From positions 1 to 63,219 of the forward strand of contig JAJZXF010000005.1 in assembly GCA_021802485.1 (NCBI GenBank): a DNA stretch of 63,219 bases. Reading direction: 5' to 3'. The notes under the pieces are model-generated. The model was given only the letters and a program-made list of their open reading frames with translations, searched no databases and had not been told where the DNA came from. Made by a program: the position numbers and the translations under genes. This document shows, piece by piece, positions 4,650-52,459 of this stretch (positions are counted from its first letter, which is position 1; each line of letters begins with the position of its first letter). Origin of the DNA: Actinomycetes bacterium. Lineage in GTDB: Bacteria > Actinomycetota > Acidimicrobiia > Acidimicrobiales > JAJZXF01.

Positions 4650-4734
4650 GGAGAGGTGCGAGAGCGGCCGAATCGGCACGACTGGAAATCGTGTGTGGGG
4701 AGACTCACCGTGGGTTCGAATCCCACCCTCTCCG
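4650..4734 (+). tRNA. tRNA-Ser (anticodon GGA)
   Basis: GGAGAGGTGCGAGAGCGGCCGAATCG...CTGGAAATCG...long variable arm...GTGGGTTCGAATCCCACCCTCTCCG. It has an acceptor stem GGAGAGG/CCTCTCC, anticodon loop CUGGAAA, a class II variable arm and a canonical T-arm. Confidence 0.9.
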
Positions 4735-4744
4735 CTCGGCAGGC

Positions 4745-13921: not shown

Positions 13922-14007
13922 GGAGGGATGCGAGAGTGGCCGAATCGGACGGTCTCGAAAACCGTTGTGTCCCTGTGGCACCGTGGGTTCGAATCCCACT
14001 CCCTCCG
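13922..14007 (+). tRNA. tRNA-Ser (anticodon CGA)
   Basis: GGAGGGATGCGAGAGTGGCCGAATCGGACGGTCTCGAAAACCG...long variable arm...GTGGGTTCGAATCCCACTCCCTCCG. It has an acceptor stem GGAGGGA/TCCCTCC and anticodon loop CUCGAAA. Confidence 0.9.
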
Positions 14008-14169
14008 CTCTCGAGAGGCCATTTCTGGAGGTTCCTCGCAACCTCCGGGAGTGGTCTCTTCGGCTCGGCCAGGAGAGACGTTTGTCCAGAGCCCTGGGTT
14101 CACCACACGTTTCCTGGCAGGGCATTGGTGGCCTGGATGCATCGGGCGCTACGATTGGTCGCCAAGCTA

Positions 14170-25368: not shown

Positions 25369-25465
25369 GTGATCGCATAGGCGAAATCAACCGTTCACTC
25401 GAGCGCTAACCCACGGAACCTCACGCGTCGAGGCGTGATCGCATAGGTGAAATCAACGGTTCACT
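25369..25465. repeat. Two 31-bp direct repeats (29/31 identical, 66-bp period) upstream of the electron-transfer operon
   Basis: gtgatcgcataggCgaaatcaacCgttcact at 25369-25399 and gtgatcgcataggTgaaatcaacGgttcact at 25435-25465. The second copy contains an internal dyad GTGAA-N8-TTCAC. Confidence 0.9.
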
Positions 25466-25609: not shown

Positions 25610-26626
25610 ATGGCGAGGAGCCTCGCTGCAATAGCGCGGGGACGCGTGACCGCCCGCCACCTCCAGGTTACCCTCGGCGTCATATGGTTGCTGGACGGTG
25701 CGCTCCAGCTGCAGCCGTTCATGTTCACGAAGGGGTTTCTGACCCAGATCCTGGAGCCGACCGCTGCAGGCCAGCCCGCGCCAATCGCCCACAGCATTCT
25801 TGGCATGGCTCATTTCCTCCAGCCAAATCTCATTGCCTGGAACGCGCTCTTTGCTGGCGTGCAGCTTGCGATTGGAGCGGGCCTCTTGTTCACGAAGACC
25901 GCAAAGCCCGCGCTGCTGGGTTCGTTCGTATGGTCATTCCTCGTATGGTGGCTGGCTGAGGGCTTTGGCGGGCTTCTAACGGGGTCCGCCTCTGCTCTGA
26001 CTGGAGCGCCGGGCGCGGTCTTGTTGTACGTGGTGGTTGGCCTATGCGCTTGGCCTGCATCATCTAGCGCGACCGCGGACTCTGTGTCCGCCTCACCGGC
26101 GAACTCGCCAGCCGGCATCCTTGGCAGCCGAGGCGCTCGCGCGGTGTGGGGCGCGCTGTGGCTTGGTTTCGCTGCGTTGAGTCTAATGCCAGCAAATATC
26201 AAGCCGGGCGCGTTGAGTGGTGTGCTGGCGTCGAGCGCTTCCGGAGAACCAGGCGTGCTTGCTGGCCTGGACCGTCTCCTAGCGCGGTTGATTGGAGGGA
26301 ATGGAACAGCAGTGTCGATAGCGCTAGCGGTGGTCGAGACTGCTATCGGAGTCGCGGTGTTGTTGCGCTGGCATCCGAAGGCCTTTCTCGGGCTTGGGGT
26401 CGCCTTTGCCATGGCGTTCTGGGTCGCGGGTCAAGATCTCGGAGGCATTCTTAGCGGTCAGGGAACCGATCCGAATGCGGGCCCGCTCGTGGCGTTGCTC
26501 GCAGTCGCGCTATGGGGAGTAGTTAGCCAGTCCAGCGCGGCGCTCGTAGCCGAACGTAGATCGAGGCGTCACAACGCGCAAGAGCACGTTGTGACCACAG
26601 ATGGAGGTATTGCTTTCGATGCATGA
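25610..26626 (+). CDS. Polytopic membrane protein (first gene of the operon)
   Basis: From ATG 25610: MARSLAAIARGRVTARHLQVTLGVIWLLDGALQLQPFMF... followed by about 8 hydrophobic segments. I could not assign a family. Its stop overlaps the NrfC-like start. Confidence 0.6.
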   Translation: MARSLAAIARGRVTARHLQVTLGVIWLLDGALQLQPFMFTKGFLTQILEPTAAGQPAPIAHSILGMAHFLQPNLIAWNALFAGVQLAIGAGLLFTKTAKPALLGSFVWSFLVWWLAEGFGGLLTGSASALTGAPGAVLLYVVVGLCAWPASSSATADSVSASPANSPAGILGSRGARAVWGALWLGFAALSLMPANIKPGALSGVLASSASGEPGVLAGLDRLLARLIGGNGTAVSIALAVVETAIGVAVLLRWHPKAFLGLGVAFAMAFWVAGQDLGGILSGQGTDPNAGPLVALLAVALWGVVSQSSAALVAERRSRRHNAQEHVVTTDGGIAFDA

Positions 26627-27584
26627 GGAAACAGTCGCGAGTAGCTCTGCAGGAGCACCAGAGCCAGCGGGCCAAGGGCCCAGCGGCGCCGAGGATTACG
26701 TGCAACCGAGGTTGGGTTCCGGCATCGCTGCGAAGGCCGCCTCGGCGGTGACTGCAGCCGTAGAGCCGGTTGTGATACGAAAGGTCAGCCGGCGGAGGGT
26801 GCTCGCTGTTCTCGGTGCAGCAGGAGCGGGCGCTGCAGCAGTTGGAACTGGTGTGCTGGGTAGGGAGAAGTCCGCGCAAGCGCTTGGCACGGGAGCGCGA
26901 GGTACGCCAGCAACAGTGTCGAAGAACCCTGCACGCCGTACTGCGCAGTGGGCGATGGTGCTTGATCTGCGGCGCTGCGACGGCTGCAAGGGGTGCACGA
27001 TGGCCTGCCAGCAACGTCACTACCTGCATGCCGACCAGACGTGGATCAAGGTTTACAAGATGACCTCGTCGGGCGGCCAGACCTACCACATGCCTCGGCC
27101 GTGCATGATGTGCGAGGACCCGCCGTGCATGTACGTCTGTCCGGTTGGCGCGACGTTCAGGAACGATGAAGGCATTGTCTTGGTCGACCAGAGTGTGTGC
27201 ATTGGATGCCGAACCTGCATGGCGGCTTGCCCGTATGAGGCCAGGTACTTCAACTGGTCGACCCCGAAGCCAGCGCCGCGGATGCCAGGTATGCCGCAGT
27301 CGCCGGAGTGGCCTGTTCCGCAGGTACTTGGCACGGTAGGCAAGTGCGTCTGGTGTGCGGACCGCCTGCCTCACGGTGAGCTCCCTGCATGCGTTCAGGG
27401 GTGTCCTATGGGGGTCATCTATATAGGAGACCTTGTCAGCGATGTCGCGGTCAACAGCTTCGGCGATGTGATCAGGATCGACGAGTTCATCAAGAAGAAC
27501 GACGCTGTGCGTTTCAAGGAGGAGCTCGGTACCAACCCAAGGGTCTGGTACGTGCTGGGACACGATCAGAGTTCGGTCGGATAG
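26601..27584 (+). CDS. Tat-exported 4Fe-4S ferredoxin-type subunit (NrfC/PsrB/HybA-like)
   Basis: Twin-arginine signal SRRRVLAVLGAAGAGAAAVG. It has four Cys clusters: CDGCKGCTMAC, CMMCEDPPCMYVCP, CIGCRTCMAACP and CVWC...CVQGCP. An alternative start exists at 26619. Confidence 0.85.
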   Translation: MEVLLSMHEETVASSSAGAPEPAGQGPSGAEDYVQPRLGSGIAAKAASAVTAAVEPVVIRKVSRRRVLAVLGAAGAGAAAVGTGVLGREKSAQALGTGARGTPATVSKNPARRTAQWAMVLDLRRCDGCKGCTMACQQRHYLHADQTWIKVYKMTSSGGQTYHMPRPCMMCEDPPCMYVCPVGATFRNDEGIVLVDQSVCIGCRTCMAACPYEARYFNWSTPKPAPRMPGMPQSPEWPVPQVLGTVGKCVWCADRLPHGELPACVQGCPMGVIYIGDLVSDVAVNSFGDVIRIDEFIKKNDAVRFKEELGTNPRVWYVLGHDQSSVG

Positions 27585-27623
27585 TGCTTGGGGGTTCGAG
27601 GACGTGACTGCAGGAAAACGGAT

Positions 27624-29114
27624 ATGCGAAGAAGCGATACGAGTATCGAAGCGAGTAAGGATGGAGGAGAGTTGACGAACACCGAGGAGTTGTCGGACGT
27701 GCCCGAGCTACCCGACGTTCGGGCGGCCTCGATGAGGCCAGTGTTGAAGCCGGGTAGGTGGTACTGGCCGGTGGTGGGTGCGCTTGTGGCAGTGGTGGCC
27801 GTTGGGGTGGTTGCCTGGGTGACGCAGCTTCATGAAGGCCTTGGGGCTGCGGGCTATAACAACCATGCCTTTTGGGCTATCTACATCGCGGATGTTGTCA
27901 CCTTTATTGGAGTGAGCTACGGCGGCGCTGTCGTGTCCGCGATACTCAGGCTGACCGGGGCAAGCTGGCGAGCCCCGCTCACCCGGATAGCCGAGGCGAC
28001 CGCGGTGGTCACGGTCATCATCGGCGGCTCCTTCATCATCCCGCACCTTGGCCGCCCAGAGCGGATCTTGGAGCTCATCTACCGTCCGAACCTGTCATCG
28101 CCGATCTTCTGGGACTTCGTAGCTGTATCGACGTACGCCTTCGCTTCGATAGTGTTTTTTTTCCTTCCCCTGATGCCTGACCTGGCCATGGCGCGCGATC
28201 GGCTCACGGCTGCGAACAGACCCCGGCTCGCGCGCTTGTGCGGGACTCTGTCATGCCGCTGGCAGGCAAAGCCAAGCCAGCGCAGGCGCCTCGACGGCGC
28301 GATCGGGCTCGTTGCGATAATGGTGATACCACTTGCTGTGTCGGTGCATTCCGTTCTGTCATGGGCGTTCACGCTCACGAGCAGGCCGTGGTGGCACGAG
28401 AGCATATGGGCCCCATACTTCGTCGTGGCAGCACTCTATTCGGGGATAGCGCTCGTGATCATTGTCGTTGCCGTGATGCGACGTATTTGGGGGCTCAAGG
28501 CGTTCATCACGGATCGCCATCTGGTGCGTCTCGGGTTCATTCTCGCGCCGTTCGGAGCGGCTTACCTGTACCTGACCATTGCGGACTTCCTCCCTGGAAG
28601 CTACGTAGGAGAAAACGGAGTCGCGAACGTCTTTGCTCAGGTTCTTGCCGGTAGATACGCACTCTGGTTCTGGTTATTCGTGTTTGCGGGGTTGATAGTC
28701 CCGCTCTTGATCATCGCTCTTCCGTGGACTCGCAGGGCGCCGTTCATTGTCACAGCGGCAGCACTGGTGGTTGGGTCGCTGTGGATCAAGCGGATGGTGA
28801 TGGTGGTAGCGCCAGCGAACTATGGCAGGGTATCGGGGGTGTTTGGCTCGTACCATTTCACATGGATCTCTGCTTGCGTCACCCTTGCGGGGGTGGCTGC
28901 GATCCCGCTGTTGCTGTTGTTGGTGTTCAGGGTCGTGCCGATTCTTTCGGTGACCGAGATGGAGGAGATGGCCGCTAGGAAGGAGCAGGAGGCTATGAGA
29001 GAAGGCGCGGATCGGGCGCTGGCTGAGATTGAGAGGCGACATGACGCGGGAGAGTCGCTGGACGTCCAAGTTGAGGAAGCGGAGATGACTCCGGTTGGAA
29101 GGGCGGATGCATGA
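27624..29114 (+). CDS. NrfD/PsrC-family integral membrane quinone-interacting subunit
   Basis: WYWPVVGALVAVV..., GYNNHAFWAIYIADVVTFIGVSYGG, IPHLGRPERILELIY and PIFWDFVAVSTYAF give the canonical NrfD pattern. It has about 10 TM helices plus an acidic cytoplasmic tail. The tracked ORF starts at TTG 27588. Confidence 0.85.
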   Translation: MRRSDTSIEASKDGGELTNTEELSDVPELPDVRAASMRPVLKPGRWYWPVVGALVAVVAVGVVAWVTQLHEGLGAAGYNNHAFWAIYIADVVTFIGVSYGGAVVSAILRLTGASWRAPLTRIAEATAVVTVIIGGSFIIPHLGRPERILELIYRPNLSSPIFWDFVAVSTYAFASIVFFFLPLMPDLAMARDRLTAANRPRLARLCGTLSCRWQAKPSQRRRLDGAIGLVAIMVIPLAVSVHSVLSWAFTLTSRPWWHESIWAPYFVVAALYSGIALVIIVVAVMRRIWGLKAFITDRHLVRLGFILAPFGAAYLYLTIADFLPGSYVGENGVANVFAQVLAGRYALWFWLFVFAGLIVPLLIIALPWTRRAPFIVTAAALVVGSLWIKRMVMVVAPANYGRVSGVFGSYHFTWISACVTLAGVAAIPLLLLLVFRVVPILSVTEMEEMAARKEQEAMREGADRALAEIERRHDAGESLDVQVEEAEMTPVGRADA

Positions 29115-29785
29115 TGGGCTCTGAGTTAGCGTCTCTCAGACGCTGCGCTAAGTGGGTTGCTGTGTTTGCGGGTTTCATCGTCACCGTGTTTCTATCTGTA
29201 GCGCCAGCAACCTTCGTCACCTTGCCGCAGGCGTTTGGGGCACCAGGGGGGTCCATGCATGCGATGCAACAGATGCCTGCCAGTAACGCAAAGAGCACGT
29301 CTAGCGGCTCCGCTGGTGGTGGCTTGAGCCTCGCAGTTGCGCCGGCGCAGGGAACCGGACACCAGCTGATGCTCACGGCAACGGTTCCGCTGGCAGCTAT
29401 GAACACCAAGCGCGTGTCGTTTTTCGTGGTCACGACCGAGCTTGGGGGCCATCGATTGGTCCCGCTGGGCAGTGCGTTGACGGACTCATCCGGCACAGCC
29501 TCGGTAATGTATCAGCCGACGTGGGCCGGCAAGGAAGAGTTCGTGGCCGAGATTGGCCGAGACCTAACGAAGCCGCTCGCGACCGCGAGCAAGTACTATG
29601 TGGTAGCTACCGCGGTTGCGGGGGTGCCACCTGCCAACACGAATGCTCCGAAGCCGCTACGTCAAGTGGGGAAGGACTTCGTAGCCGTGGTCCTCGCGGT
29701 GGTTGCTGCGGTGTGGATGACCCTTCTCATCACGCTCTACCGAGTTGTGGTGGGCACCCGGAAGCTTTCGACAAGGGCTACGTGA
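29111..29785 (+). CDS. Bitopic membrane protein with an extracytoplasmic Ig-like/beta-sandwich domain
   Basis: ATGA overlap with the NrfD-like stop. It has an N-terminal signal/TM segment (WVAVFAGFIVTVFLSVAPA), a beta-rich middle (HQLMLTATVPL...VSFFVVTTELGGHRLVPLGSALTDSSGTASVMYQP) and a C-terminal TM (FVAVVLAVVAAVWMTLLITLY). Confidence 0.6.
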   Translation: MMGSELASLRRCAKWVAVFAGFIVTVFLSVAPATFVTLPQAFGAPGGSMHAMQQMPASNAKSTSSGSAGGGLSLAVAPAQGTGHQLMLTATVPLAAMNTKRVSFFVVTTELGGHRLVPLGSALTDSSGTASVMYQPTWAGKEEFVAEIGRDLTKPLATASKYYVVATAVAGVPPANTNAPKPLRQVGKDFVAVVLAVVAAVWMTLLITLYRVVVGTRKLSTRAT

Positions 29786-29790
29786 CGGAG

Positions 29791-30708
29791 ATGGGCACGG
29801 CGCTGCGCTCGCCTGGTTCCTGGAGTACCAAGCTTCGCACCGTGCTCTTGATAACTTCTGTCGTCGGGTTGCTGACTGCATCCGGCCTCTTTGTGTCCGC
29901 GTGCTCGCGATCATCGCCTCGTTCATCGGCGATGATCCACCTCGCCCGTGCAGTTTCGCTGACGCAGAGCGCGGGAACTGCCTTGACAACGGTTAGCCTG
30001 CACATGCTGTCGGCACGGGTTGGGCCGGTGAGCGGGAAGGCGACTGGTGTCGTGGACTTTGCGGATCATGACGGCCGGATGGAGCTTTACGGGTTCGGGC
30101 TCCCGGAGCGTTCAGGAACCGCTGTTGTTTTTACGAACTCAGCGATCTATATGAAGCTCCCGCAGTACGCGCGACTCAAGGGCCAAGGGAGCAAGCCTTG
30201 GTTGGGGTTGCTCTTGAGTGACTTAAACGCTGTCTCGACAGCGCAGGCTGGATTCGTCTTCCAGGCTGAGACTGTCAACGCTGTGTACCTTCTGGATGCG
30301 ATATCTCGCGGAGCGGTGGCATTCAATAAAGCACCAGCGCGGGGGAACTCTGCTCCCTACCAGGGGACGGTGAACCTTGCAACCGCGCAGAGGTACTCAA
30401 GTGGTCTGGACGCTATGGTTCTTTCTCAGCAGGAAACCTTTACCGGCGTCGAGACTGCGCCGCTGTATGTTTGGCTCGACTCGAGGGGCAGGATCGCGAA
30501 GTTCCAGATGATTCTCGACCCTTCGCAGTCGTCTGGGGGCAGTCACCTGAGCGGCAAAGTGACAATCACGGTTTCGCTGCGTGAGTTCGGGGTGCCTTCG
30601 CAGGTTGTGGCTCCTCCCACAGGAGAGGTAGCAAATCTGGACGTGATTCTGGAGAACCTTTCGGGTGGGGAGATGGGAGAGCCGCCAGGTGAGACTCCAG
30701 GCCAGTAG
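29791..30708 (+). CDS. Putative lipoprotein
   Basis: ATG lies 5 nt after the previous stop. The signal peptide ends in the lipobox LFVSAC. The mature part is beta-rich and reminiscent of LppX/LprG/LolA-like folds (guess). Confidence 0.6.
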   Translation: MGTALRSPGSWSTKLRTVLLITSVVGLLTASGLFVSACSRSSPRSSAMIHLARAVSLTQSAGTALTTVSLHMLSARVGPVSGKATGVVDFADHDGRMELYGFGLPERSGTAVVFTNSAIYMKLPQYARLKGQGSKPWLGLLLSDLNAVSTAQAGFVFQAETVNAVYLLDAISRGAVAFNKAPARGNSAPYQGTVNLATAQRYSSGLDAMVLSQQETFTGVETAPLYVWLDSRGRIAKFQMILDPSQSSGGSHLSGKVTITVSLREFGVPSQVVAPPTGEVANLDVILENLSGGEMGEPPGETPGQ

Positions 30709-30833
30709 GGCTGCAGTTCCCGCAGGTACCCTTGGAAATCGAAGCGCTATTGAAGCCCGATTTGTCCGGTGATCGCGTCGTGGAGAGCAGTGCGCCCGCT
30801 GAGGTGTCCAGTGGCGAATCGCGTGGTGGGCCT

Positions 30834-32411
30834 ATGTCATCAAGGGGGGTCGATCTAACCAGGGCCCGGGTGGTCGGCAGTTTAGCTGACCGTGTGCTCA
30901 GATGGCGTGCGCTTCAATTCTTCGTGATCCTGCCGAACGAGGTGCTGTTCTGGATCGTGATCCTCACGGGCCTAATTGGTGGGGTATTCTTGCATCAGTC
31001 ACACGTGTCGAAGACCGTGCACTTCGGGACTGGAGCAAGCTCTGGAATCAGTTCTGGCACCGGTGCACATGCAGGCTGGTTGTTCAATACGCCGCTCGTT
31101 GACACCTGGGCGAGACCTAACTTCTCCACAGCGATCACCTGGTGGCTGTGGTGGTCGCTCGTTTGGGTGCTGATGGCTGTCGTTGGAAGGGGCTGGTGCA
31201 TGGTGTGCCCCTTCGGTGGCGCTGCGGAGTGGGTCCAGCGGCTCTCGTTCTGGAAAAGGCGCGATCGGTCGCTCGGGCTGGGCCTTAGGTGGCCGCGTTC
31301 GCTGGTGAGGTTGGGGATTCTCCCGGCGGTGGCCGCGTTCATCCTGCTCACCTGGGTCGAGGAGTACTACAACATCTCGGTCTCCGCTGATCCGTTTACG
31401 ACCGGAGTCCTGGTCGGGGTCATCATTATCCTCGCTCTCGGGATGCATCTGGTCTTCGAGCGCAGGACGTTCTGCGCGTATCTGTGCCCGCTCACCGCAG
31501 TGTTCGCCCCGCTTGGAGCAACAGGGGTGGTCGCTGGGTTCAGGGCTCGCGACCCTGAGCGGTGCTATACGTGCGAGACGAAAGACTGCATGCGAGGCGG
31601 CGAGAAGGGATACGAGTGCCCATGGTACGAATGGCCAGCGACTGCCTCGTCGAACGCGTCATGCGGGCTGTGTACGGAGTGCTACAAGGCCTGCCCGTAT
31701 GACAACGTCGGCCTCTTTGTAGAACGCCCGTTCACATCGGTCATAGCGCCTGGAAAACGGCGCTATGACATCGCTATCGCGGCGGTTGCGATCCTCGGAG
31801 CGATCGTGTTCATGACACTGAACGCTCTCCCAGTCTACACGAGCATCGATGCGAAGCTTGACGCGTGGCTCTCATTTCCTCACTACCCGAATCCTGTCGA
31901 TTACTTTGGGATCATTGCAGCAGTCATAGGGCTCTTTGCCGTGCTCGTGTGGTTCGTACGGTTCGCATCTTCGCCGAAGAGGAGCCCCGGCTCTTTCTCG
32001 AGGTGGTTCATCCCGCTTGCCTACGGCATCATCCCGCTTGCGACAGCGGACCTGCTAGCGAACAGAGCGCCGACGTTGTTGTTTTACGGCCCGCGGATGA
32101 TCCAGGTTATTTCCGACCCGTTCGGTAGGGGGTGGAACCTGTTTGGTACCGCGCATCTCGCGATAGCGCGCTCGCACCTCGTGAGCTTCAATTTCCAAGG
32201 GCGTTCTGCAGCGGCGCTTGCGGTGCAGATCGGCATCCTCGCCCTCGGAGCGGCAGCGGCCCTGTGGAGCACGCACCGGATATTTGCAAGTGATCTCCGC
32301 TCGGAGAGCGGGCGTCCCATCCTGGGTGAGGTTTCGGCGCTGTGTGTGATCGCTGCTTGCGGCACCTTGATCGCCTGGAGCTACATACTGCTCGCAGGAA
32401 TGGCAACGTGA
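30834..32411 (+). CDS. NapH/MauN/YccM-type membrane polyferredoxin with an extra C-terminal membrane domain
   Basis: Two CxxCP membrane motifs (WCMVCPFGG, FCAYLCPL), two cytoplasmic 4Fe-4S motifs (CYTCETKDC...CPW, CGLCTECYKACP), then about 6 additional TM helices. The tracked ORF starts at TTG 30732. Confidence 0.8.
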   Translation: MSSRGVDLTRARVVGSLADRVLRWRALQFFVILPNEVLFWIVILTGLIGGVFLHQSHVSKTVHFGTGASSGISSGTGAHAGWLFNTPLVDTWARPNFSTAITWWLWWSLVWVLMAVVGRGWCMVCPFGGAAEWVQRLSFWKRRDRSLGLGLRWPRSLVRLGILPAVAAFILLTWVEEYYNISVSADPFTTGVLVGVIIILALGMHLVFERRTFCAYLCPLTAVFAPLGATGVVAGFRARDPERCYTCETKDCMRGGEKGYECPWYEWPATASSNASCGLCTECYKACPYDNVGLFVERPFTSVIAPGKRRYDIAIAAVAILGAIVFMTLNALPVYTSIDAKLDAWLSFPHYPNPVDYFGIIAAVIGLFAVLVWFVRFASSPKRSPGSFSRWFIPLAYGIIPLATADLLANRAPTLLFYGPRMIQVISDPFGRGWNLFGTAHLAIARSHLVSFNFQGRSAAALAVQIGILALGAAAALWSTHRIFASDLRSESGRPILGEVSALCVIAACGTLIAWSYILLAGMAT

Positions 32412-34180
32412 GCGCTGGAGATCGTGGATCGGATACAAAGCGGCGGGTCCGGGTTCAGATCCTACATATACCGTGTGTCGGATGCCGCGACTGCGTAGAG
32501 CGCTGTCCTGTCGGAGCGCTCGCGATCCAGCCGACCACGGGGATGCTGGAGGCTGATGAGAACACCTGCGTCGGATGCAGGATCTGCGAGAGGGTGTGTG
32601 CGTACGCTGCGATCAGGATCGATGGCCTGCTTGATTCAACCCCTACGACTGTTCCCCTTGCCCGCGTCCCCGATCCGGTAGAAGGGGACATCGCAGAGGT
32701 CCAACCGGGACTTTCAGGCCTCGATCAGGCGCGGGTGGAGGCAGAGCGCTGCCTGCAGTGTCCGGATCCGAGTTGCGTCTGGGGGTGTCCTGCACACAAC
32801 GACATCCCGGGGTTCATTGCCAGCGTGCGCGCTGGGGATCTCGGCGGAGCAAGTAGGGTCCTCGGCGAGACCAGCTGCCTTGCGGGCACGTGCGCTCGGG
32901 TGTGTGATGCACTGCGCCAGTGCGAGGGAGCATGCGCTCTTGCACTTGCTGGAGGCGAACCGGTCGCGATCAAGCTGCTCGAGCGCTTTGTTGCGGACTC
33001 TGCGGGGGGTTCAACGCCGGCGGGGGTGATGGGCTTGAACGGAGCTGGAGCAGTTGCTTCGGGGATCTCTGTCGCGATCGTGGGGTCGGGACCAGCGGGG
33101 CTTGCTGCAGCTCTGTGGCTCCTTTCCGCAGGCGCTCGGGTCGAGCTGCTCGAGTCGGAACCGGAGCTTGGCGGGGTGCTCCGCTGGGGGATGCCACGCT
33201 ATGAGCTGGCGAGCGACGTCTGGTCGCCGTTGGTAAGGATGCTGGAGCGCGAGGGAAGGCTAAGGGTGCGTGTTTCAACGAAGGTTGGCCGTGATGTGGA
33301 GATCGGAAACCTTCTCGAGCGCCACGACGCTGTCTTGCTCGCTCATGGCGCGTCCGTAGTGCCCCAGCTTCGCGTAACGGGTGGGGACCAGCCAGGCGTG
33401 ATGGACGCGATGACATTTCTTCGAGGAGCTGGCGGCGTGTGGGATCCGAGCGGGAGCGTGTCGGGTGATGAACTACGTGGCGTGAGCGTGCTTGCTGTCG
33501 GCGGGGGAGACACCGCGATGGCAGTTTCCAGGATGGCGCTACGGCTTGGGGCAAGGGCGATCACGGTACGAAGGAGCCAACGATCCAAGGCCGCAGTTCG
33601 CGTGGACGAGCTGGATCAAGCCTTGGCGGAAGGGGTGGATGCCCGTTTCGGCATCCGTGTAGAGCGCCTGGAGGTGGATGGCACGAAGGTGGGTGCAGCG
33701 GTGCTTGAGCGCCTCGGTGCACCCCGCTGGTGTGGGATAATGGCATTTCGCACACAGGCCAGTGGTGCTCAGATGGAGCGACTTGCATGCGACCTCGTGG
33801 TGGCATCCACCGGGTTTGGTGTCGACACCGAGCTTTTCGGGGCTGCTGGCGTGCCCGCGGCGTGGGAGCTGGCGGTCCGAGACGGTCGCTCGCGGCGCAG
33901 GGGTAGCTCTCGAAACAGGGCCCTCGTCGCCGCGTCAGGGCTGAACTCAGAGGATCGTGATGCTAATGCGAGGAGGATTGCCCGCGAGGTGCTCGCGACG
34001 GAGGCGATGCTTGCCACCTCGGATCGGCGACTCTCGGGCAGCGTCTGGGCTGCCGGGGATGCGCTCACAGGGCCGTCGAGTGTCGTCTGGGCAATGGCCT
34101 CGGGCCACAGGGCAGCGCTTGGCATCGTGGCGGCGCTTGGCAACAAGCACGCCGACCGGCATCAGCTTCCCGAGGAGTAA
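32408..34180 (+). CDS. Fused 2x[4Fe-4S] ferredoxin / GltD-like (glutamate synthase small-subunit-like) NAD(P)H-dependent flavin oxidoreductase
   Basis: GTG at 32408 overlaps the upstream TGA (GTGA). It has CVGCRDCVERCP and CVGCRICERVC motifs, the GltD N-terminal FeS region RCLQCPDPSCVWGCPAHNDIPGF...CARVCD..CEGAC, an FAD fold VAIVGSGPAGLAAA...ESEPELGGVLRWGMP, and a second dinucleotide fold VLAVGGGDTAMAV. Confidence 0.85.
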   Translation: MSAGDRGSDTKRRVRVQILHIPCVGCRDCVERCPVGALAIQPTTGMLEADENTCVGCRICERVCAYAAIRIDGLLDSTPTTVPLARVPDPVEGDIAEVQPGLSGLDQARVEAERCLQCPDPSCVWGCPAHNDIPGFIASVRAGDLGGASRVLGETSCLAGTCARVCDALRQCEGACALALAGGEPVAIKLLERFVADSAGGSTPAGVMGLNGAGAVASGISVAIVGSGPAGLAAALWLLSAGARVELLESEPELGGVLRWGMPRYELASDVWSPLVRMLEREGRLRVRVSTKVGRDVEIGNLLERHDAVLLAHGASVVPQLRVTGGDQPGVMDAMTFLRGAGGVWDPSGSVSGDELRGVSVLAVGGGDTAMAVSRMALRLGARAITVRRSQRSKAAVRVDELDQALAEGVDARFGIRVERLEVDGTKVGAAVLERLGAPRWCGIMAFRTQASGAQMERLACDLVVASTGFGVDTELFGAAGVPAAWELAVRDGRSRRRGSSRNRALVAASGLNSEDRDANARRIAREVLATEAMLATSDRRLSGSVWAAGDALTGPSSVVWAMASGHRAALGIVAALGNKHADRHQLPEE

Positions 34181-34938
34181 CCAGTGGTGAAGTAGCTCCG
34201 CGCTCCGAACCATACCGGCACGCCGCCTGGCCACCATGGAGCCGGCTGCATGAGGACCTTGAGGTTGCTCGAGAACGCTATCCCGCCTGGGGGCCAGAAG
34301 AATCCAGAGAGTCCCTGACCGTTGCACCAAGGGGTTACGCTGCCGCCTTGGACCGGGTCATTGTTATAGAACGGACTCACGGTCGAGATCCCTGTGTTGT
34401 TGCCGTTCCACCCGACGCTTGGCCACGCATTCCAGCTCCAGATGGTGAACCAAGCGAGGTGGTTGTCGATGTAAACCCATATCTCGCCGTCATAGGCTCC
34501 GCAGTTTCCACCGTCGAACCCGCCGTTGTTGGGGCCACAGCCGGGGTTGTTGTTGCCGCACATGTTTGCAAGCGCGCTCCAGGTGAGACCCTTGAACACG
34601 CCGGGACCGGATACGTTTACCATGGTCATTTGCTGGTTGTTGTAGCCTAAGCAACCCCAAGGCGTGCACCCCCAGGCATGGGGGGCGCCAACCGGCTGTG
34701 ATACGCGGAGTCGTCCTTGGGAGTTCACCGGTAGGTTGGCGACGTTCACATTCGGCGTGTTGGCGACGCTCACGTTAACCGGCGGCAGTGAGGAGTGAGC
34801 GGTTGCTGCGCCTGCAGGCGTGGTCGCGAGCGCAGCCATTGCGCCGATCCCGCCGCCGACCATCAGCATTGCTGCTGCAAGCAATCCGGTCATTCCAGAG
34901 CGAGCCACGAGGCCCCCTGGTTTCTTGAAGCTACCCAT
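34162..34938 (-). CDS. Secreted Trp/Gly/Asn/Cys-rich protein of unknown function
   Basis: It has a signal peptide (LLAAAMLMVGGGIGAMAALATTPAGAATA). The mature part is very rich in W, G, N and paired C (GCTPWGCLGYNN, CGNNNPGCGPNNGGFDGGNCG, WSWNAWPSVGWNGNN). Its 3' end overlaps the gltD-like 3' end by 19 nt in convergent orientation. Confidence 0.6.
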   Translation of the reverse strand: MGSFKKPGGLVARSGMTGLLAAAMLMVGGGIGAMAALATTPAGAATAHSSLPPVNVSVANTPNVNVANLPVNSQGRLRVSQPVGAPHAWGCTPWGCLGYNNQQMTMVNVSGPGVFKGLTWSALANMCGNNNPGCGPNNGGFDGGNCGAYDGEIWVYIDNHLAWFTIWSWNAWPSVGWNGNNTGISTVSPFYNNDPVQGGSVTPWCNGQGLSGFFWPPGGIAFSSNLKVLMQPAPWWPGGVPVWFGARSYFTTGYSSGS

Positions 34939-37158: not shown

Positions 37159-38412
37159 TTAGGCAGCTGGCGGGGTTGGAGCGGCGTTGGCGAGGGACCT
37201 GAGTGTGTTTCGAAGAGCAGCTGCGGATAACGGGAAAGCTCCGGACGTGATTGACCAGGACCCGTAGTCCCAGACCACGCCGTACTTTACAGCATGGGCA
37301 GTCATCCATTTGAGCAGGTGCTGGACGAAGTAGGGATCGTCATTCCCACCGGGACCGTCACCCTGGGGAGCGAGTCCCCATTTTGCTATGGCGAGCGGTT
37401 TACGGTTGGTGCTCGCGAATTCCGCGAACCAGGTCAATCCGTAGTCCACGTTCAAAAGCTCAGCCCATCGTTCTGCAGCGGTGGTCGTTGTCCCAGCAGC
37501 GTTCGCTGTGCCTGAAGGCGGGCTGGGTGCAGTGAGCTCCTGCTGGAGGACGTCTGTGGCTATGATGTCCACGTAGGCGTTTCCGGGGTAGATGGATTCG
37601 GGTGAGATGGCCGTGGATGTCTGGGCCGCGTCCCACTCGAATCGGAAGTGCGCTCCCGGCACAGCACGCATTGACGTGACAATGTCGCGCCAGTACGTAA
37701 CGTACTGGGCAGCGCCAGCCGGTGTTGTCGCAGACCATGGAAGTCCGGGAAGATCAGCATCCCATCCGAGGACGAGGATGGCATCTTGCTGGCCATGCTG
37801 GACGAGGAGCTTCGCGAGTTCGTTGAAGTAGCTGTCGTAAGCCCCTGTCGCTCCGAGCGCGAGCGTGGCTCCTGATGCGGGCAGCATCGGCACTCCCCAG
37901 ATTCTCTGAAATCCGGATCCGGCCCATTTGGCCAGTGTCCACGCGGGGTCAGCGATGGTGCTCCAGCTTGCATTGCTGAGAAAGTCCATCGCGTAGCGGA
38001 CCGGAAAGCCAAGGTAGTCCTGAAAGGCATGGGCCCCTGCGACGTTTCCCGCTCCCGCGTACACGCCAACTCCCACACCGGCCGTCAGGCCGTATCCTGG
38101 AGGGACGCGCGATGGCAGGTGCCTTGCTCCCCGCTGGGTGGGTGCAGTTTGGGCAACCTTCGCGTTCTGGTGCCCTCGAGCGCTGCGCCCGCGTTGGTGA
38201 GGCCCTCCCGGCTCGCCGACGACGAGGGCGGCAAAGCCGGTTGCGAGAACGGCGAGCGCTACTGCAACCCCAGCTATGCGAAGTCTGCTTCGGTGCTGCT
38301 CGGAAGCATGTTCAAAGTACGCAGACCCTAAGTCCTTGGAGTTGTGTGGTTGCGAGCTAGGCAACTTGGTCTGCTCCAGTTGCGATCTTGTCGAGTCGAC
38401 CGCGGGTCCCAC
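37159..38412 (-). CDS. Secreted (beta/alpha)8 glycoside-hydrolase-like protein (GH26-like)
   Basis: It has an N-terminal TM/signal segment. The later segments YDSYFNELAKLL, ILVLGWDADLPGLPW, YVTYWRDIV, YPGNAYVDIIATDV and KPLAIAKWGL line up with the GH26 pattern, but with non-Glu residues where I expect the two catalytic glutamates. This alignment was done by eye and is tentative. Confidence 0.5.
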   Translation of the reverse strand: MGPAVDSTRSQLEQTKLPSSQPHNSKDLGSAYFEHASEQHRSRLRIAGVAVALAVLATGFAALVVGEPGGPHQRGRSARGHQNAKVAQTAPTQRGARHLPSRVPPGYGLTAGVGVGVYAGAGNVAGAHAFQDYLGFPVRYAMDFLSNASWSTIADPAWTLAKWAGSGFQRIWGVPMLPASGATLALGATGAYDSYFNELAKLLVQHGQQDAILVLGWDADLPGLPWSATTPAGAAQYVTYWRDIVTSMRAVPGAHFRFEWDAAQTSTAISPESIYPGNAYVDIIATDVLQQELTAPSPPSGTANAAGTTTTAAERWAELLNVDYGLTWFAEFASTNRKPLAIAKWGLAPQGDGPGGNDDPYFVQHLLKWMTAHAVKYGVVWDYGSWSITSGAFPLSAAALRNTLRSLANAAPTPPAA

Positions 38413-41400
38413 TTCGCAGGCCCCGACCGATGTTGATCGCCGCTCTCCAGGCTTCGGAGAGCACCGCGCGTGAGCGTTTGTCCGCGAGCGGAAGCGGCAG
38501 CGCTACGACGAGGAGAATGCGCTCAGGCCAGGGCGCGAGGTCGAAGAACAGCGCAGGAACCAGGGCCAGGATCCAGATCAGCGCGGGCCATACCGTTGAA
38601 ACGTGTAGGTTCAAGGACTTTCGAAGGGAGATGAACGGCACCGCACCCACCAACACGCCGGCAAGCGGCGCCAGTCCCGCCGAGACTACTCCGAGGCGAG
38701 GTACCACGAGGATCGCAACGACTGCTGTGACCGGCAGTGCAATGATCTCCGCGACAGCGAACCGGATCGGTGAATGTGTAACGAGGAACGTAGCTGCCGC
38801 GACGACGAACAGGGCCTCGCAGAGAGCCGCTGCGGACATAGCTGGAAGCACCATGAACACAGATCGCCACGTCGGGCCGAAGACGGTGCTCACCAGGAAG
38901 GGCGAAGCGATGGTCACTACAACGAGTGGCACCCCTAGAGTCGCGACCTCTAGAACTGTTCCGTCGGTCAAGCCTGTCGCGAGGCGTTCTGCATCATCCT
39001 TCACGCGCGCAAGCCCCGCAAGAGCGACTCGCCATGTGGAGCGCACTCCGATGGAAAGCATGTCGATTATGCGCCAGGAAAGAGCCAGCCAGCCAACAGC
39101 CGTTACACCCAGGTCAGCGCCGATCACGAGAGCAAGGATGGCCCGTGCGCCCCGTGGGCGCCACATCGATACCGACGCTGGGATGCCGAAGCGGAGCATA
39201 TCCACAGCCTCCGCACGTGACCATGCAAACCGGGGTCGAGATCCGGCAAGCCGGTAGCTGCCGAGGAACCGGACAGCCTGCCAGACAAGCGTGCCTGCAA
39301 CCGGAGCCCAGGCGCCCGAGCCCATGAGCGCAAGCGGCAGCGCGACGATGTAAAGAGCGGCGTCTGCTGCAACTTCAAGGATCGCGAGGCGCCCGAAGCC
39401 AAATGAGCGCTCGATGCGGGCCTGAGCGGGTGCCCAGAGCACGTTTAGCGGCAACCCGATTATGAGGATCCTCAGCAAGGGGGTGATGCCGTTGTGGCCG
39501 AGGAGCCCTCCGGCTACGAAGGTCGCGAGCATCAAGACCGCTGAAATACACGCTGTTGTAAGGCACAGGAGTGTGAATGCGATGTCGAAGAGCCTCTGCG
39601 ATGGGTCTTGGTGCCGGATCAGGTATACCTCTGCACCGACTTGAGCGACGGTGGCGCCAAGGGTGACGATGGCCGCTGCGGTCGCGTAGCGGCCGAATGC
39701 GCTGGGGCCGATGAGGCGTGTGAGGGCAAGGACCCCACCGAGACGGATGATCCCGCCGGCACCTTCTCGCAGCATCAGGTAAGCGCCACCTTCGATCCCT
39801 CTCGTGCGTAAGGGACGCTCTGGATCGCTTCCCCTAGTCGCAAGGTGGGCGTCGGTTCCCGGCGGTGGTGGCACTGGTGGGTTCTTGATCGACGCGAGAA
39901 CCGCAAGGTCCGAGCGGTCCACCGAGCGCGGTGAGTAGCCGCTGTGAGCTGCTAGCTGGGTATCCACTGAAAGGCACTGGACCTGCTGCCCGCCAACTAT
40001 GCCTGATGTTGTGCGTGGCAGTGAGCTACTCGCATCTTCAGATGACGTCTTAGAGTTAGGCGGAGCTAGCTCCGCAGGGTGAAGGTCGATCCTGCGCCCG
40101 AAAGCGTCTTCGAGCAGGAGCCTATGTGGGAACAGAGCGGAGGATACGACGTCCACCTCGCGTACGAAGAACCCCTTTTCGCACAGGATCTCTCTTGCGC
40201 GATCTGTCTCGAAAGCTCCAGGTCTTGACGCGTTAACGATGAGGTCCAGGTCATGATGGCGCCGTGTCTTCTTGTGCAAGAGCGCATCGATGCCCCACCC
40301 CCCAGCTATCACTACGCGGATTCCCTCGCGGCCAAGGAGGCCGACTACGTAGTTCACGTCGTTGGCGCTTGCTCCGAGAACGCGCCGTCGCAGCCTTCCG
40401 AGCGACGCGGCACTCACGCGTATTGCCGTTCGTTTTACACGACTTACTCGTCCTCGAGCAAGGTAATCGGTCGTATCAAGCGCAGGAAATGCAGGTGCTG
40501 TTCCAAGTTCAAGCCGGTAGTGGGCTTGTGGCGAGGATACGGACGGGATCCCGTTTGTCGAAATGCTGCTCGCTCGAAGCGAGTTCTCGGGCTGTGATCG
40601 CTGTGCGAGCAGGGATCCGCCAAGCGCACTGCCGGCTGGAGCGAGGAGTCCGAACAGGGCCCAGAGCGCTTGAGGAAGCCCTCCGTTGCTCACGTATGGC
40701 CATATGGCATCCATCGGTATGAGAACCAATGACAATACCACTAGTGCACGTCCCAGTGCGACATCCATGGGGTCAGAACTCCGCGCGGACTTGCGCGCCC
40801 TGTCGATCATTGCCCAGCTCATCGCTCCGAAGAGCACCAGCACTAAGACGCCGCCTTCCATGAGCAGCGTGATGTACTGCGACTCCGTGTACTGCCAGTC
40901 CACGTTCGTCGGCAAGCTCACGCCGTACCCGGTAAGCGGCCTTGCTTCGATTGCGGGTATGTACTCTGTCGTCCAGATCTGGAGTCGGAAAGCGATTGTC
41001 TGGGGCATTCCGACGCTCCGGGAGCTGCCGGCTGACGTGCCGAACTCGGTAACCATACGCTGTCCCAGGTAGGAGCCGAAGGCGAGGATCACTGCCAGGG
41101 TGCCAATCCCCAGCCACGCGAGTACCTTCTTGGAACGCCGGGCCCAGACGCCTAGAGCGATAGCTCCCGCTAGCAGCCCGCCCATCGCTGATATCTCAGC
41201 GGTCAGCATCAGCGCTGCAAGGGACAGCGCTGTTACAAGCTTGGTGGTGCGCGTCCTGTCATGAAAGGTGCGAAACAGTGCGAACGACACAAGGGGAATC
41301 AGGACCGTGATCAGGTAACCTGCTAGCGGCGTCCAGTGGTCGAACGGACCGGTGGCCCGCTTGAAGACATGGTAAGCAGGCGAGCCGAGAACTGTGCTAC

Positions 41401-42232
41401 CGGTGAGCTTGATGATGAACGCGTTGATAGCGTGCAACCCTGACTGCTGTGCGATAGCCAGCAGCGAGACGGGGATGCTTGCTACGAGGAAGGCGATCAG
41501 AGCGTTCCTGCGCTCCTTGCGGGTTCGAAGCGATACCCGTACAGCTCTGTAGATGAGGAAGAACTGCAACTGCCCGATCGCTGTGCCCCAGTTCGAGATC
41601 GTAAGGTGCTCGTGCATAGTGAGTGCGTTCACTGCGGCCATTGCCGCCCAGCCAAGGCCGTAGATGAGCAGGAGCCAGTCGAGAGCTCCCCAACGCACGG
41701 CATCCTTTTTCCTTGTGGCAACAAGAACCGTCACTCCGACGGCGCCGATCAGCGCCTCCGAGAGCCGCACGTGTGGTACTGGGATTCCTGGCTGGAAACC
41801 CGAGACGATCGGGACGATCGCGACCAGTATGAATCCTCCAATAGCAGGGCGGACGAGAACCACGCCGACGACGACGAACCCGCCGAGAAGTGCGATCGCG
41901 AGCTTGATGTCGTATACGCCAGCCACCCCGATCGCAATCCCGCCGAAGATTGCCGCTATTGCAAGGAGCAGATCACGGGGAGCTGTCGTGAGCCAGCTCT
42001 GTGCTGGTTCTGGCAGCTGAAGTGGGTTCCGAACTGGTCGCTGGTCTTGCGGCGCGACCGTTCTTGGATCCGGGGATGCCGATGTGATGTCCAGCTCTGT
42101 GGCGTTCCGGGCCGGCTTGGTGTCCCCGGCGTCGTGGAATGAGCTTCGCGAGGTGCCGGCAGGTGTTTCATCAGATGATGAGCCGGCAGTCTTCACCCGC
42201 TGGCCCGGCGCAAGTGCGCTAGAGCCCTTCAA
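38357..42232 (-). CDS. 1291-aa fusion of a Wzy/O-antigen-ligase-like polymerase domain, an Lnu/ANT(2'')-like nucleotidyltransferase domain and a Wzx-like (MOP) flippase domain
   Basis: aa ~90-560 form a polytopic domain with the Wzy_C-like RATGPFDHWTPLAGYL loop. aa ~600-760 are soluble, with GREGIRVVIAGGWGIDALLHKKTRRHHDLDLIV (the GGWGxDALLGxxTRxHxDxD signature of small nucleotidyltransferases). aa ~830-1291 contain about 12 TM helices typical of polysaccharide flippases. It is a single uninterrupted frame. Confidence 0.7.
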   Translation of the reverse strand: MKGSSALAPGQRVKTAGSSSDETPAGTSRSSFHDAGDTKPARNATELDITSASPDPRTVAPQDQRPVRNPLQLPEPAQSWLTTAPRDLLLAIAAIFGGIAIGVAGVYDIKLAIALLGGFVVVGVVLVRPAIGGFILVAIVPIVSGFQPGIPVPHVRLSEALIGAVGVTVLVATRKKDAVRWGALDWLLLIYGLGWAAMAAVNALTMHEHLTISNWGTAIGQLQFFLIYRAVRVSLRTRKERRNALIAFLVASIPVSLLAIAQQSGLHAINAFIIKLTGSTVLGSPAYHVFKRATGPFDHWTPLAGYLITVLIPLVSFALFRTFHDRTRTTKLVTALSLAALMLTAEISAMGGLLAGAIALGVWARRSKKVLAWLGIGTLAVILAFGSYLGQRMVTEFGTSAGSSRSVGMPQTIAFRLQIWTTEYIPAIEARPLTGYGVSLPTNVDWQYTESQYITLLMEGGVLVLVLFGAMSWAMIDRARKSARSSDPMDVALGRALVVLSLVLIPMDAIWPYVSNGGLPQALWALFGLLAPAGSALGGSLLAQRSQPENSLRASSISTNGIPSVSSPQAHYRLELGTAPAFPALDTTDYLARGRVSRVKRTAIRVSAASLGRLRRRVLGASANDVNYVVGLLGREGIRVVIAGGWGIDALLHKKTRRHHDLDLIVNASRPGAFETDRAREILCEKGFFVREVDVVSSALFPHRLLLEDAFGRRIDLHPAELAPPNSKTSSEDASSSLPRTTSGIVGGQQVQCLSVDTQLAAHSGYSPRSVDRSDLAVLASIKNPPVPPPPGTDAHLATRGSDPERPLRTRGIEGGAYLMLREGAGGIIRLGGVLALTRLIGPSAFGRYATAAAIVTLGATVAQVGAEVYLIRHQDPSQRLFDIAFTLLCLTTACISAVLMLATFVAGGLLGHNGITPLLRILIIGLPLNVLWAPAQARIERSFGFGRLAILEVAADAALYIVALPLALMGSGAWAPVAGTLVWQAVRFLGSYRLAGSRPRFAWSRAEAVDMLRFGIPASVSMWRPRGARAILALVIGADLGVTAVGWLALSWRIIDMLSIGVRSTWRVALAGLARVKDDAERLATGLTDGTVLEVATLGVPLVVVTIASPFLVSTVFGPTWRSVFMVLPAMSAAALCEALFVVAAATFLVTHSPIRFAVAEIIALPVTAVVAILVVPRLGVVSAGLAPLAGVLVGAVPFISLRKSLNLHVSTVWPALIWILALVPALFFDLAPWPERILLVVALPLPLADKRSRAVLSEAWRAAINIGRGLRSGTRGRLDKIATGADQVA

Positions 42233-52408: not shown

Positions 52409-52459
52409 AGTGCCATATGCATGTATCACCACGCTGGATACCGGACCCTCATATACACA

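Follow-up and report, generated by a model that had tools for sequence, protein, structure and literature searches.

Alternative complex III (ACIII) acts as a menaquinol:auracyanin or menaquinol:cytochrome c oxidoreductase, auracyanin being a cupredoxin (PMC7439408). CcoG, which carries two [4Fe-4S] clusters, is a cupric reductase for which the physiological electron donor is unknown (PMC7558416). Proteins related to both systems are encoded side by side in a contig of an Actinomycetes bacterium of the Acidimicrobiales (JAJZXF010000005.1, assembly GCA_021802485.1), of which positions 1 to 63,219 were analysed; this whole stretch of 63,219 nucleotides is referred to as the window. The operon region (25610-34180), in which every junction was read in the sequence, comprises seven genes on the plus strand, designated G1 to G7. 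By comparative data they fall into two modules, module A (G1-G4), with an ACIII-type core, and module B (G5-G7), which combines a membrane polyferredoxin with a cytoplasmic flavoprotein. The parts are of known kinds, the combinations are new, and neither module has been characterised so far. Full-text literature searches aimed at both modules returned no description of module A or module B, and a review of NrfD proteins names no such actinobacterial group (PMC8076601). The NrfD module treated in a paper on Tat tail anchors was considered and set aside, as it is a different module with cytochromes.

G3 (27624..29114, +) is a membrane subunit of the NrfD/PsrC superfamily (PF03916, E 2.7e-34, 119.6 bits against a cutoff of 25.8, residues 90-407) and is of the ActC type. 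A profile of the G3 family, run against the Protein Data Bank (PDB), found only four distinct sequences, all of them ActC chains of ACIII and all matched over the full length (6f0k_C at 6e-58, 6btm_C, 8k9e_C and 6lod_C; E 6e-58 to 9e-50), and it did not reach PsrC or other NrfD-type chains of the PDB. With the DsrP model of NCBIfam G3 scored 88.4 bits (cutoff 350). Pocket residues were read from printed alignments against the Roseiflexus ACIII paper (PMC7439408): H141 and D164, the menaquinol ligands of ActC, and the coupling H242 are invariant across the G3 family, and the second pocket aspartate of ActC is replaced by Ala248 throughout. From its sequence, G3 presumably carries a menaquinol/menaquinone site at the outer face.

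G2 (26619..27584, +) is a ferredoxin of the NrfC/PsrB/DsrO/ActB type. It matches Fer4_11 (Pfam, E 8e-20); the best NCBIfam model is DsrO (171.5 bits, cutoff 200), NrfC reaching 110 of the required 378, and among PDB chains it matches ArrB and PsrB (~1e-30) and the iron-sulfur (FeS) domain of ActB from ACIII (5e-22). The protein has a twin-arginine motif (SRRRVL) of the twin-arginine translocation (Tat) pathway and 16 cysteines arranged in four complete cluster motifs, all of them 4-Cys, in a length of ~270-320 amino acids (aa) that consists of the FeS domain only. G2 is predicted from these sequence signals to lie on the outer membrane face, and since it has a Tat signal of its own and each of its four cluster motifs is complete, it needs no hitch-hiking on a molybdoenzyme. 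Since among solved structures G3 matches only ActC and G2 matches the FeS domain of ActB, the core of module A is of the ACIII type. An earlier reading of this DNA, made without database searches (the sequence-only reading), had stated that the gene set does not match ACIII. This has to be corrected for G3, which among solved structures matches ActC alone and over its full length; the statement stands for the complex as a whole, which is still no ACIII. The NrfC-, NrfD-, NapH- and GltD-like assignments of the same reading are borne out by hidden Markov model (HMM) searches, though with scores below the curated cutoffs of the named enzymes.

Homologues of G3 are numerous (1,159 at E up to 1e-5, 50-77% identity) and all the named ones belong to Actinomycetota. 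Most of them are 640-700 aa long, and their C-terminal ~200 residues, which consist of a membrane helix, an immunoglobulin-like (Ig-like) domain and a second membrane helix, with Big_3_5 or Big_1 matches in several cases, align with G4 (29111..29785, +). G3 and G4 are thus the split form of one protein. G4, an extracytoplasmic Ig-like domain that itself matches neither Pfam nor NCBIfam, has one N-terminal hydrophobic segment (signal or anchor) and one C-terminal membrane anchor; no His, Cys or Met is invariant in the alignment of its family, and therefore no metal site is predicted.

Module A was surveyed at 80 loci from species-representative genomes, 37 of which have at least 4 kb on each side, and neighbouring genes were clustered on the basis of a crude gene call. 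A G2-like gene lies directly upstream of the G3 homologue in 68 of 72 loci and a G4-like sequence downstream of it in 59 of 71. Among the 37 well-flanked loci a sensor kinase was found in 26, a small lipoprotein, here termed X, in 22, a homologue of G1 in 15, and G5 and G7 in one each. Cryobacterium sandaracinum and a Kineosporia sp. are cultured carriers of module A. The position of G1 (25610..26626, +), a polytopic all-helical membrane protein, varies: it lies upstream of G2, between it and G3, or following G4. It has no Pfam or NCBIfam match and no sequence match in the PDB, and each of its more than 2,398 homologues that bears a name is called 'hypothetical protein'. Three motifs are invariant (LGxIWLxDGxLQLQPxMF, VWWxxEGxGG and GTDPN). 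With the AlphaFold2 (AF2) model of G1 (predicted local distance difference test score 88.6), Foldseek returned a single coherent family, the membrane domain of vitamin-K gamma-carboxylase (probability at most 0.98, TM-score 0.42, E 0.2 or worse); weak DoxX_3 matches were obtained for 2 of 22 members of the G1 family. DoxX, DoxD and HTTM proteins bind quinones. There is thus a weak hint that G1 has a quinone-binding DoxX/HTTM-like fold and might handle menaquinone. In one genome (L007) a G1-like gene lies ~9 kb from a stand-alone G6-G7 pair.

Neighbour clustering revealed no conserved large neighbour gene in the 80 loci related to module A, in agreement with the annotated neighbourhoods of L011-L013, so that there is no candidate for a catalytic subunit of this module. 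No haem c subunit is annotated next to module A in L011-L013, no CxxCH motif is present in any open reading frame (ORF) of at least 100 aa in the whole 63-kb window, and no molybdopterin domain (PF00384) was detected in the 12 ORFs of at least 450 aa outside the operon or in seven smaller neighbouring ORFs. The absence of a haem or molybdopterin catalytic subunit that had been noted from the sequence is thus confirmed for this locus, and none is conserved across the 80 loci. A molybdopterin oxidoreductase gene in L015 (75% G3 identity) was considered as catalytic subunit and rejected; it is a single case, 4-7 kb downstream of the NrfCD module, beyond genes of the opposite strand and next to a G1-like gene on that strand. 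The same locus encodes an FTR1 iron permease fused to a Fer4_5 polyferredoxin; the coordinates of these L015 features are L015:15911-18091(-) and L015:18186-21320(+). In L013 (a Micromonosporaceae metagenome-assembled genome, MAG), the region upstream of the two-component system and NrfCD (L013:1-5457) encodes an electron-transfer flavoprotein, a Fer4/CCG protein, two GcvH-like proteins, DsrE and a Rieske protein, a cluster reminiscent of sulfur-oxidising heterodisulfide-reductase-like systems.

Lipoprotein X of the relatives has 190-220 aa and is encoded in 1-4 tandem copies upstream of the NrfC-like gene (loci L011-L093; e.g. L011:8425-9090 and L013:8509-9090). Its consensus, HTFTVPxLGxNxPIP...GTFxWxCxAPCGSGxxGMGGAM, keeps one His, both Cys (CxxxC) and the Met of the CuA site and lacks the second His. 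A profile of the family matched only cupredoxins in the PDB, namely the CuA domains of ba3 oxidase subunit II (2e-4 to 7e-4), NirK, auracyanin A (0.015) and N2O reductase. At some loci a third, weaker type of X is found between the Ig-like domain and the G1-like gene. The sensor kinase, composed of transmembrane, PAS and HisKA_3 segments and accompanied by a NarL/GerE-type regulator, belongs to one family that adjoins module A or module B in different genomes (examples are L011:6136-8287(-), L007:7247-9893(-) and L118:6957-9027(-)).

Module B is built around G6 (30834..32411, +), a membrane polyferredoxin of the NapH/MauN/NosR/CcoG kind. Its sole Pfam domain is Fer4_5 (E 8e-7), and the NapH/MauN model TIGR02163 gives 34.2 bits against a cutoff of 213. 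A CxxCP motif follows helix 2 and a CxxxCP motif follows helix 4, both at cytoplasmic helix ends, and eight cysteines provide for two [4Fe-4S] clusters; invariant cysteines are 122, 125, 214, 218, 244, 247, 252, 262, 277, 280, 283 and 287, and no His is invariant in the alignment of the family. The chain begins ~24 residues ahead of the first helix and comprises four core helices, the 2x[4Fe-4S] domain and then about five more helices. The extra membrane domain announced by the sequence-only reading is thus present, with about five helices and not the ~6 expected. The AF2 model (predicted TM-score 0.81) has a conserved outside loop, SDPFGxGWNLFGT. Because the FeS domain is located between positively charged loops it is assigned to the cytoplasm, and by charge distribution and AF2 model the N-terminus and the FeS domain of G6 are both predicted to be cytoplasmic. 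No PDB chain was found with the G6 profile, and Foldseek gave noise only.

G7 (32408..34180, +) is a cytoplasmic NAD(P)H-binding FeS flavoprotein of the NfnB/GltD type with Fer4_7, Fer4_20 (1e-30) and Pyr_redox_2 (9e-16) domains and without a signal peptide. Its best PDB match is NfnB (4ylf_B, 1e-51), followed by the large subunit of NfnI (5jca_L) and GltD (6s6s_G), and all equivalog scores are far below their cutoffs (e.g. gltA, 219 versus 472). An additional N-terminal 2x[4Fe-4S] ferredoxin domain precedes two further clusters, the FAD fold and the NAD(P)H fold. G5 (29791..30708, +) is an extracytoplasmic lipoprotein (lipobox VSAC) and distantly resembles the SCO4651 family (NF053532, matched along the whole model with 54.7 bits, cutoff 65); it has no Pfam or PDB match and no metal-binding motif. 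Homologues of G5 with 40-42% identity are encoded directly upstream of, and overlapping, G6-like genes in L174 and L175, where the G5-G6-G7 unit occurs without any NrfCD. The C-terminal tail SGGEMGEPPGE(T/P)PGQ (30664-30708) is near-identical in these homologues and may be a docking or sorting motif. In the G6 subclade nearest the window (59-77% identity) the first outside loop carries an insertion of ~45 residues. G5 is present in four of four loci with this insertion, which is missing in all 21 aligned G6 homologues, drawn from 83 G6 loci without a G5-like gene. G5 tracks the G6 insertion and occurs in L174 and L175 in the absence of NrfCD, and we therefore assign it to module B and not to the NrfCD module. 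The sidedness of the whole set, predicted from sequence and from the AF2 model, agrees with that proposed earlier: G2 has its Tat signal, G5 its lipobox, G6 its charge pattern and model, and G7 no signal peptide.

Full-length homologues of G6 (40-50% identity) are found in MAGs labelled Actinomycetota, Chloroflexota, Bacillota, Deinococcales and others, and some sources label them 'NosR/NirI family'. A G7-like gene follows the G6-like gene immediately in 73 of 80 metagenome loci, and at least four of the seven remaining contigs end within a few hundred bases of G6; the pair is also present in L007-L010, L174 and L175. G1-G5 occur in none of the four long G6-G7 contigs (L007-L010) and in none of the 73 metagenome G6-G7 loci. 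About 46 of 80 module B loci are flanked by the PAS-HisKA_3 kinase/regulator family. At 26 of 85 loci G6-G7 have as neighbour a long Rrf2 regulator of ~320 aa (e.g. L007:13788-14762(-)), which has an additional C-terminal domain and three cysteines in a motif characteristic of Rrf2 proteins that bind FeS clusters. A search of 1.84 billion representative sequences with the G6 profile found 341 at E up to 1e-30. In many distant relatives of full length the G6 core is preceded by a signal peptide, an outside domain and one additional helix. The outside domain could be recognised in six of ten scanned relatives (cytochrome c, cytochrome c554, two cupredoxins plus a COX2-like domain, NosL, YHS, and the heavy-metal-binding domain HMBD). 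These fusions indicate that cores of the G6 type work with an extracytoplasmic redox or copper partner. A motif of the fused relatives, YHLAHNxxH, is replaced by ADYLARQ in the G6 clade, which therefore probably lacks whatever the histidines of this motif bind. The one fused relative whose neighbourhood was examined, the archaeal P0389, has no G7 neighbour.

As the main alternative to a quinone reductase, module B could on this evidence be a metal (cupric) reductase driven by NAD(P)H, or a device for maintenance or maturation like NosR: G7 would feed G6, which together with G5 on the outside would reduce copper for, or deliver copper or electrons to, extracytoplasmic metalloproteins such as the cupredoxins or the FeS protein of module A. 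G6 shares the Fer4_5 family with the cupric reductase CcoG and has the CxxCP and CxxxCP motifs, the outside domains of its distant relatives include NosL, YHS, heavy-metal, cupredoxin and cytochrome c domains, and an FeS-type Rrf2 regulator accompanies G6-G7 at the 26 loci mentioned. Copper would be needed for the 1-4 cupredoxin genes at module A loci of relatives, and the FTR1-Fer4_5 fusion in L015 is located near module A. Such a function is nevertheless unlikely in our estimate, though by no means far-fetched, because the window has no gene for a cupredoxin or recognisable cuproprotein, the NCBIfam matches of G6 are to NapH/MauN models only and to no CcoG-specific model, the G6 clade has neither YHLAHNxxH nor an invariant His or Met for a copper site, and G5 is devoid of a metal-binding motif.

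The seven genes of the two modules are tightly packed. The ATG of G2 (26619) falls 8 nt inside G1, the stop codon of which is TGA at 26624-26626, and has GGAGG ahead of it; between the G2 stop (27584) and the start of G3 (TTG 27588 or ATG 27624) there are 3-39 nt; G3 and G4 overlap in ATGA (29111-29114), and G6 and G7 in GTGA (32408-32411). The actual junction of the modules, G4/G5, is only 5 nt, the G4 stop (29785) being followed by CGGAG, with a Shine-Dalgarno-like GGAG, and by the G5 ATG at 29791. The sole sizeable gap separates G5 from G6 and amounts to 23 nt (TTG 30732) or 125 nt (ATG 30834, the G6 start picked by gene callers). An alternative start of G1 is possible at ATG 25517. For G2 there are three candidates, ATG 26619, GTG 26748 and GTG 26772; L014, the closest relative, shows no conservation over the first ~48 residues of G2, and homologues of G2 have ~284 aa, so that the G1/G2 overlap is uncertain and may be a gap of up to ~145 nt. 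Apart from this start, the seven plus-strand ORFs and their overlapping or abutting junctions were all found as the sequence-only reading had described them. The same locus is present in several MAG assemblies, where independent gene calls gave the same seven genes, and L014 has all seven in the same order with 52-88% protein identity. The arrangement has thus been maintained and is not a chance juxtaposition in one assembly.

The conclusion drawn earlier from this packing, that all seven products probably form one stoichiometric transmembrane complex, did not survive the comparison. In its favour are the overlapping or near-abutting codons at G3/G4, G4/G5, G6/G7 and possibly G1/G2 and the conservation of the arrangement in L014. 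However, translational coupling indicates co-expression and not co-assembly, G1 shifts its position or is absent, and either module is complete and conserved alone in almost all relatives: G2-G4 (with G1) and G5-G7 are joined only in the lineage of the window and its one sister, L014, which is one of the 80 genome loci and none of the 80 from metagenomes. The full seven-gene order was found in L014 only, and a catalytic gene is never conserved beside the module. We consider the one-complex assumption quite improbable, and a single obligate seven-subunit complex is not supported.

The same counts suit the opposite assumption that two unrelated modules were brought together by rearrangement in one lineage and have their partners elsewhere. 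The modules are apart in 79 of 80 genome loci and in all 80 from metagenomes, some phyla have module B but apparently not module A, and the largest intergenic gap (G5/G6) is at or near the module boundary. Against mere adjacency, the window and L014 agree in gene order and close spacing at the identities given above, the G4/G5 junction has only its 5 nt with the Shine-Dalgarno-like GGAG, and one sensor-kinase family adjoins both modules in other genomes; incidental adjacency appears distinctly unlikely to us. In average-linkage clusters cut at 50% distance, three module-A kinases fall among module-B kinases. Cupredoxins likewise occur in both contexts, as X at module A loci and as a cupredoxin/COX2 fusion in a distant G6 relative, and the G1-like gene near the G6-G7 pair of L007 also speaks for a link. 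The two modules are, judged by these sequence comparisons, separable units that are probably functionally connected.

For their joint function we tentatively favour two cooperating but separable haem-free modules that would form a menaquinone-mediated redox loop from cytoplasmic NAD(P)H to an acceptor outside, a realistic possibility on which we would not yet count. G7 would oxidise NAD(P)H at its FAD, and single electrons would run along its four [4Fe-4S] clusters to the cytoplasmic cluster pair of G6, on whose outside loop G5 would dock. G6 would reduce menaquinone at the inner side with protons from the cytoplasm, and G3 would oxidise menaquinol near the outer face with release of protons outside. 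The four clusters of G2 would then hand the electrons to an extracytoplasmic partner, G4 and G1 being structural or quinone-handling accessories. This partner would in most relatives be the CuA-like cupredoxin lipoprotein, for which this window has no gene. Whereas gene order, cofactor motifs, family relationships and the separate conservation of the modules are shown, we infer the direction of electron flow, the acceptor and the role of the quinone as link between the modules. That a haem-free conduit links NAD(P)H, quinone and an outside partner had already been suggested from the sequence, and this idea survives, supported by the fusions in distant relatives of G6.

Several observations weigh against the proposed redox loop. 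No quinone site can be discerned in G6; the similarity to NapH is weak (34 bits) and has no structural template. The NosL, YHS and HMBD fusions of distant G6 relatives would suggest copper handling at least as much as respiration. The presence of module B in Chloroflexota, Bacillota and other phyla, with all named G3 homologues being actinomycetotal, implies that module B has a function of its own. Even with hits at E up to 10 admitted, an HMM of the X family matched nothing in the window and nothing in L014, and a tblastn search of the window detected neither X nor the TM-PAS-HisKA_3 kinase with its NarL-type regulator. A promoter scan found no promoter-like site, and terminator-like sites inside genes at chance frequency, which is uninformative on operon structure; a second promoter might be located in the 23-125 nt between G5 and G6. 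Finally, all clusters of G2 are 4-Cys, as opposed to the [3Fe-4S] cluster beside ActC in ACIII, and since G2 lacks a [3Fe-4S] cluster the preferred direction of electrons is not fixed.

This last point bears on a reversed, lithotrophic operation in which Fe(II) or reduced sulfur outside the cell, as in mine drainage, would deliver electrons via G2-G3 to menaquinone and G6-G7 would drive them uphill to NAD(P)H. Having only [4Fe-4S] clusters, G2 is not committed to quinol oxidation; NrfD-type subunits have been discussed as ion-translocating (PMC8076601), and the isolate names of the closest-relative MAGs (FK2, YP4, DBS2 and others) resemble mine-site codes, as read from the names and not from records. 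On the other hand, both modules are common in freshwater-labelled MAGs (Nanopelagicaceae, Planktophila) and in genera such as Cellulomonas and Phycicoccus, G6 has no evident energy-coupling device, and no iron-oxidation marker was found in the window by CxxCH and domain scans. We regard the reversed operation as very improbable.

A more general proposal is in our view doubtful. Actinomycetota may possess an undescribed respiratory branch, free of haem and molybdenum and composed of two units, a two-subunit ACIII derivative with cupredoxin and an NAD(P)H-fed polyferredoxin, which would be under one redox-sensing two-component control and merged at the present locus. If so, the first unit, an ActB-type FeS protein with an ActC-type/Ig fusion, would exchange electrons between menaquinol and CuA-like cupredoxin lipoproteins, and in the second a NapH/CcoG-type polyferredoxin would have in G7 the long-sought kind of physiological donor. 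The cupredoxin would have been lost in this lineage, where G2 would communicate directly with the polyferredoxin-lipoprotein unit or with another acceptor.

The surroundings of the operon comprise genes for short-chain dehydrogenases/reductases, an amidohydrolase, polysaccharide synthesis, GGDEF proteins and a LigT-like protein. Housekeeping markers (tRNA-Ala, 366-442; dnaX, encoding DNA polymerase III gamma/tau, 2210-4024; signal recognition particle (SRP) RNA, 4220-4318; two tRNA-Ser, 4650-4735 and 13922-14008) identify the window as ordinary chromosome and not a mobile element. An Rfam scan of the window returned tRNAs and the SRP RNA only and no leader RNA. The palindrome TCACGCGTCGAGGCGTGA (TCACGC-N6-GCGTGA, 25421-25438) upstream of G1 was rejected as an operator, since it was matched in 43 of 100 shuffles; its other occurrences are inside the coding sequence of a regulator, and it is not conserved in the promoters of relatives. 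Convergent with G7, and overlapping it by 19 nt, is a gene for a 258-aa protein (34162-34938, -) without a Pfam match, which shows a hydrophobic segment at its N-terminus and a high content of W, G and N; a gene of similar size is present at the same place in L014 and in other assemblies. A 626-aa ORF (50714-52594, -) with a weak match to a Cas12f1-like TNB domain (E 6.6e-6) may, by this match, code for a TnpB-type transposon-associated nuclease. A 1,291-aa ORF (38357-42232, -) combines Wzy_C O-antigen-ligase-like, aminoglycoside-2''-adenylyltransferase-like and polysaccharide-biosynthesis flippase domains and is called as a single gene in other assemblies, too.

NrfD-type modules are regarded as adaptors for enzymes with haem or molybdenum; the G3 family has neither and appears to use a cupredoxin instead. 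Module A would thus be a minimal relative of ACIII and a new exit from the menaquinone pool in Gram-positive bacteria without soluble cytochrome c. The G6-G7 pair would supply the NapH/NosR/CcoG family with an obvious cytoplasmic donor, which is lacking in every case studied, and bears on how CcoG and NosR are reduced. Because both modules are fused in this operon, the functional link between them is directly testable. Labels such as 'polysulfide reductase NrfD', 'HybB-like' or 'NosR regulator' in metagenomes would wrongly imply sulfur, hydrogen or N2O metabolism.

The likeness to ACIII lies in G3, which is homologous over its full length to ActC and to no other solved NrfD-type chain and has kept the His/Asp ligands and the coupling His, in G2, which matches the FeS domain of ActB, and in the pairing of module A with a cupredoxin in relatives, comparable to that of photosynthetic ACIII with auracyanin. 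In contrast to ACIII, however, there is no pentahaem ActA or monohaem ActE and no CxxCH in the window, and module A is devoid of the molybdopterin-like B1 domain of ActB, of ActD and of the second NrfD-like subunit ActF. G2 has four 4-Cys clusters and no [3Fe-4S], the second pocket Asp is an Ala in G3, and module A adds the Ig-like domain and the G1-type membrane protein. With NrfCD, PsrBC, DsrOP and QrcCD it shares a Tat-exported four-cluster ferredoxin on a membrane subunit of the NrfD superfamily, and as in NrfC and DsrO the ferredoxin has its own Tat signal. Yet the scores are below every equivalog cutoff (DsrO 171/200, DsrP 88/350, NrfC 110/378), and the partners NrfA, PsrA, DsrMKJ and QrcAB are absent from the window and from the loci of relatives. 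From the complex iron-sulfur molybdoenzymes (Psr, Ttr, Arr, Dms, Fdn) module A differs in that no molybdopterin subunit is encoded with it and that G2 has its own Tat signal.

NapGH, and NosGH of clade II nos systems, resemble the operon as a whole in that a NapH-type polyferredoxin (G6) and a periplasmic-type four-cluster ferredoxin (G2) are encoded together. G6, however, reaches only 34 bits of the NapH/MauN cutoff of 213, has about five extra helices and is paired with a cytoplasmic flavoprotein, G2 belongs to the NrfD subunit, and there is no Nap or Nos enzyme. CcoG/FixG and NosR/NirI have in common with G6 the Fer4_5 family and FeS clusters at the cytoplasmic face; their function is tied to extracytoplasmic copper proteins. 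Unlike NosR, G6 has no FMN-binding domain, and unlike CcoG it has no C-terminal Ig-like FixG_C domain, matches no CcoG model and has a dedicated NAD(P)H flavoprotein as partner. G7, finally, shares the two-cluster Fer4_20 domain and the FAD and NAD(P)H folds with NfnB, GltD, SudA and AegA/YgfT and, with AegA and YgfT, also the extra N-terminal ferredoxin domain. In contrast to NfnB and GltD it comes without a soluble partner such as NfnA or GltB and is conserved together with the membrane polyferredoxin G6 instead.

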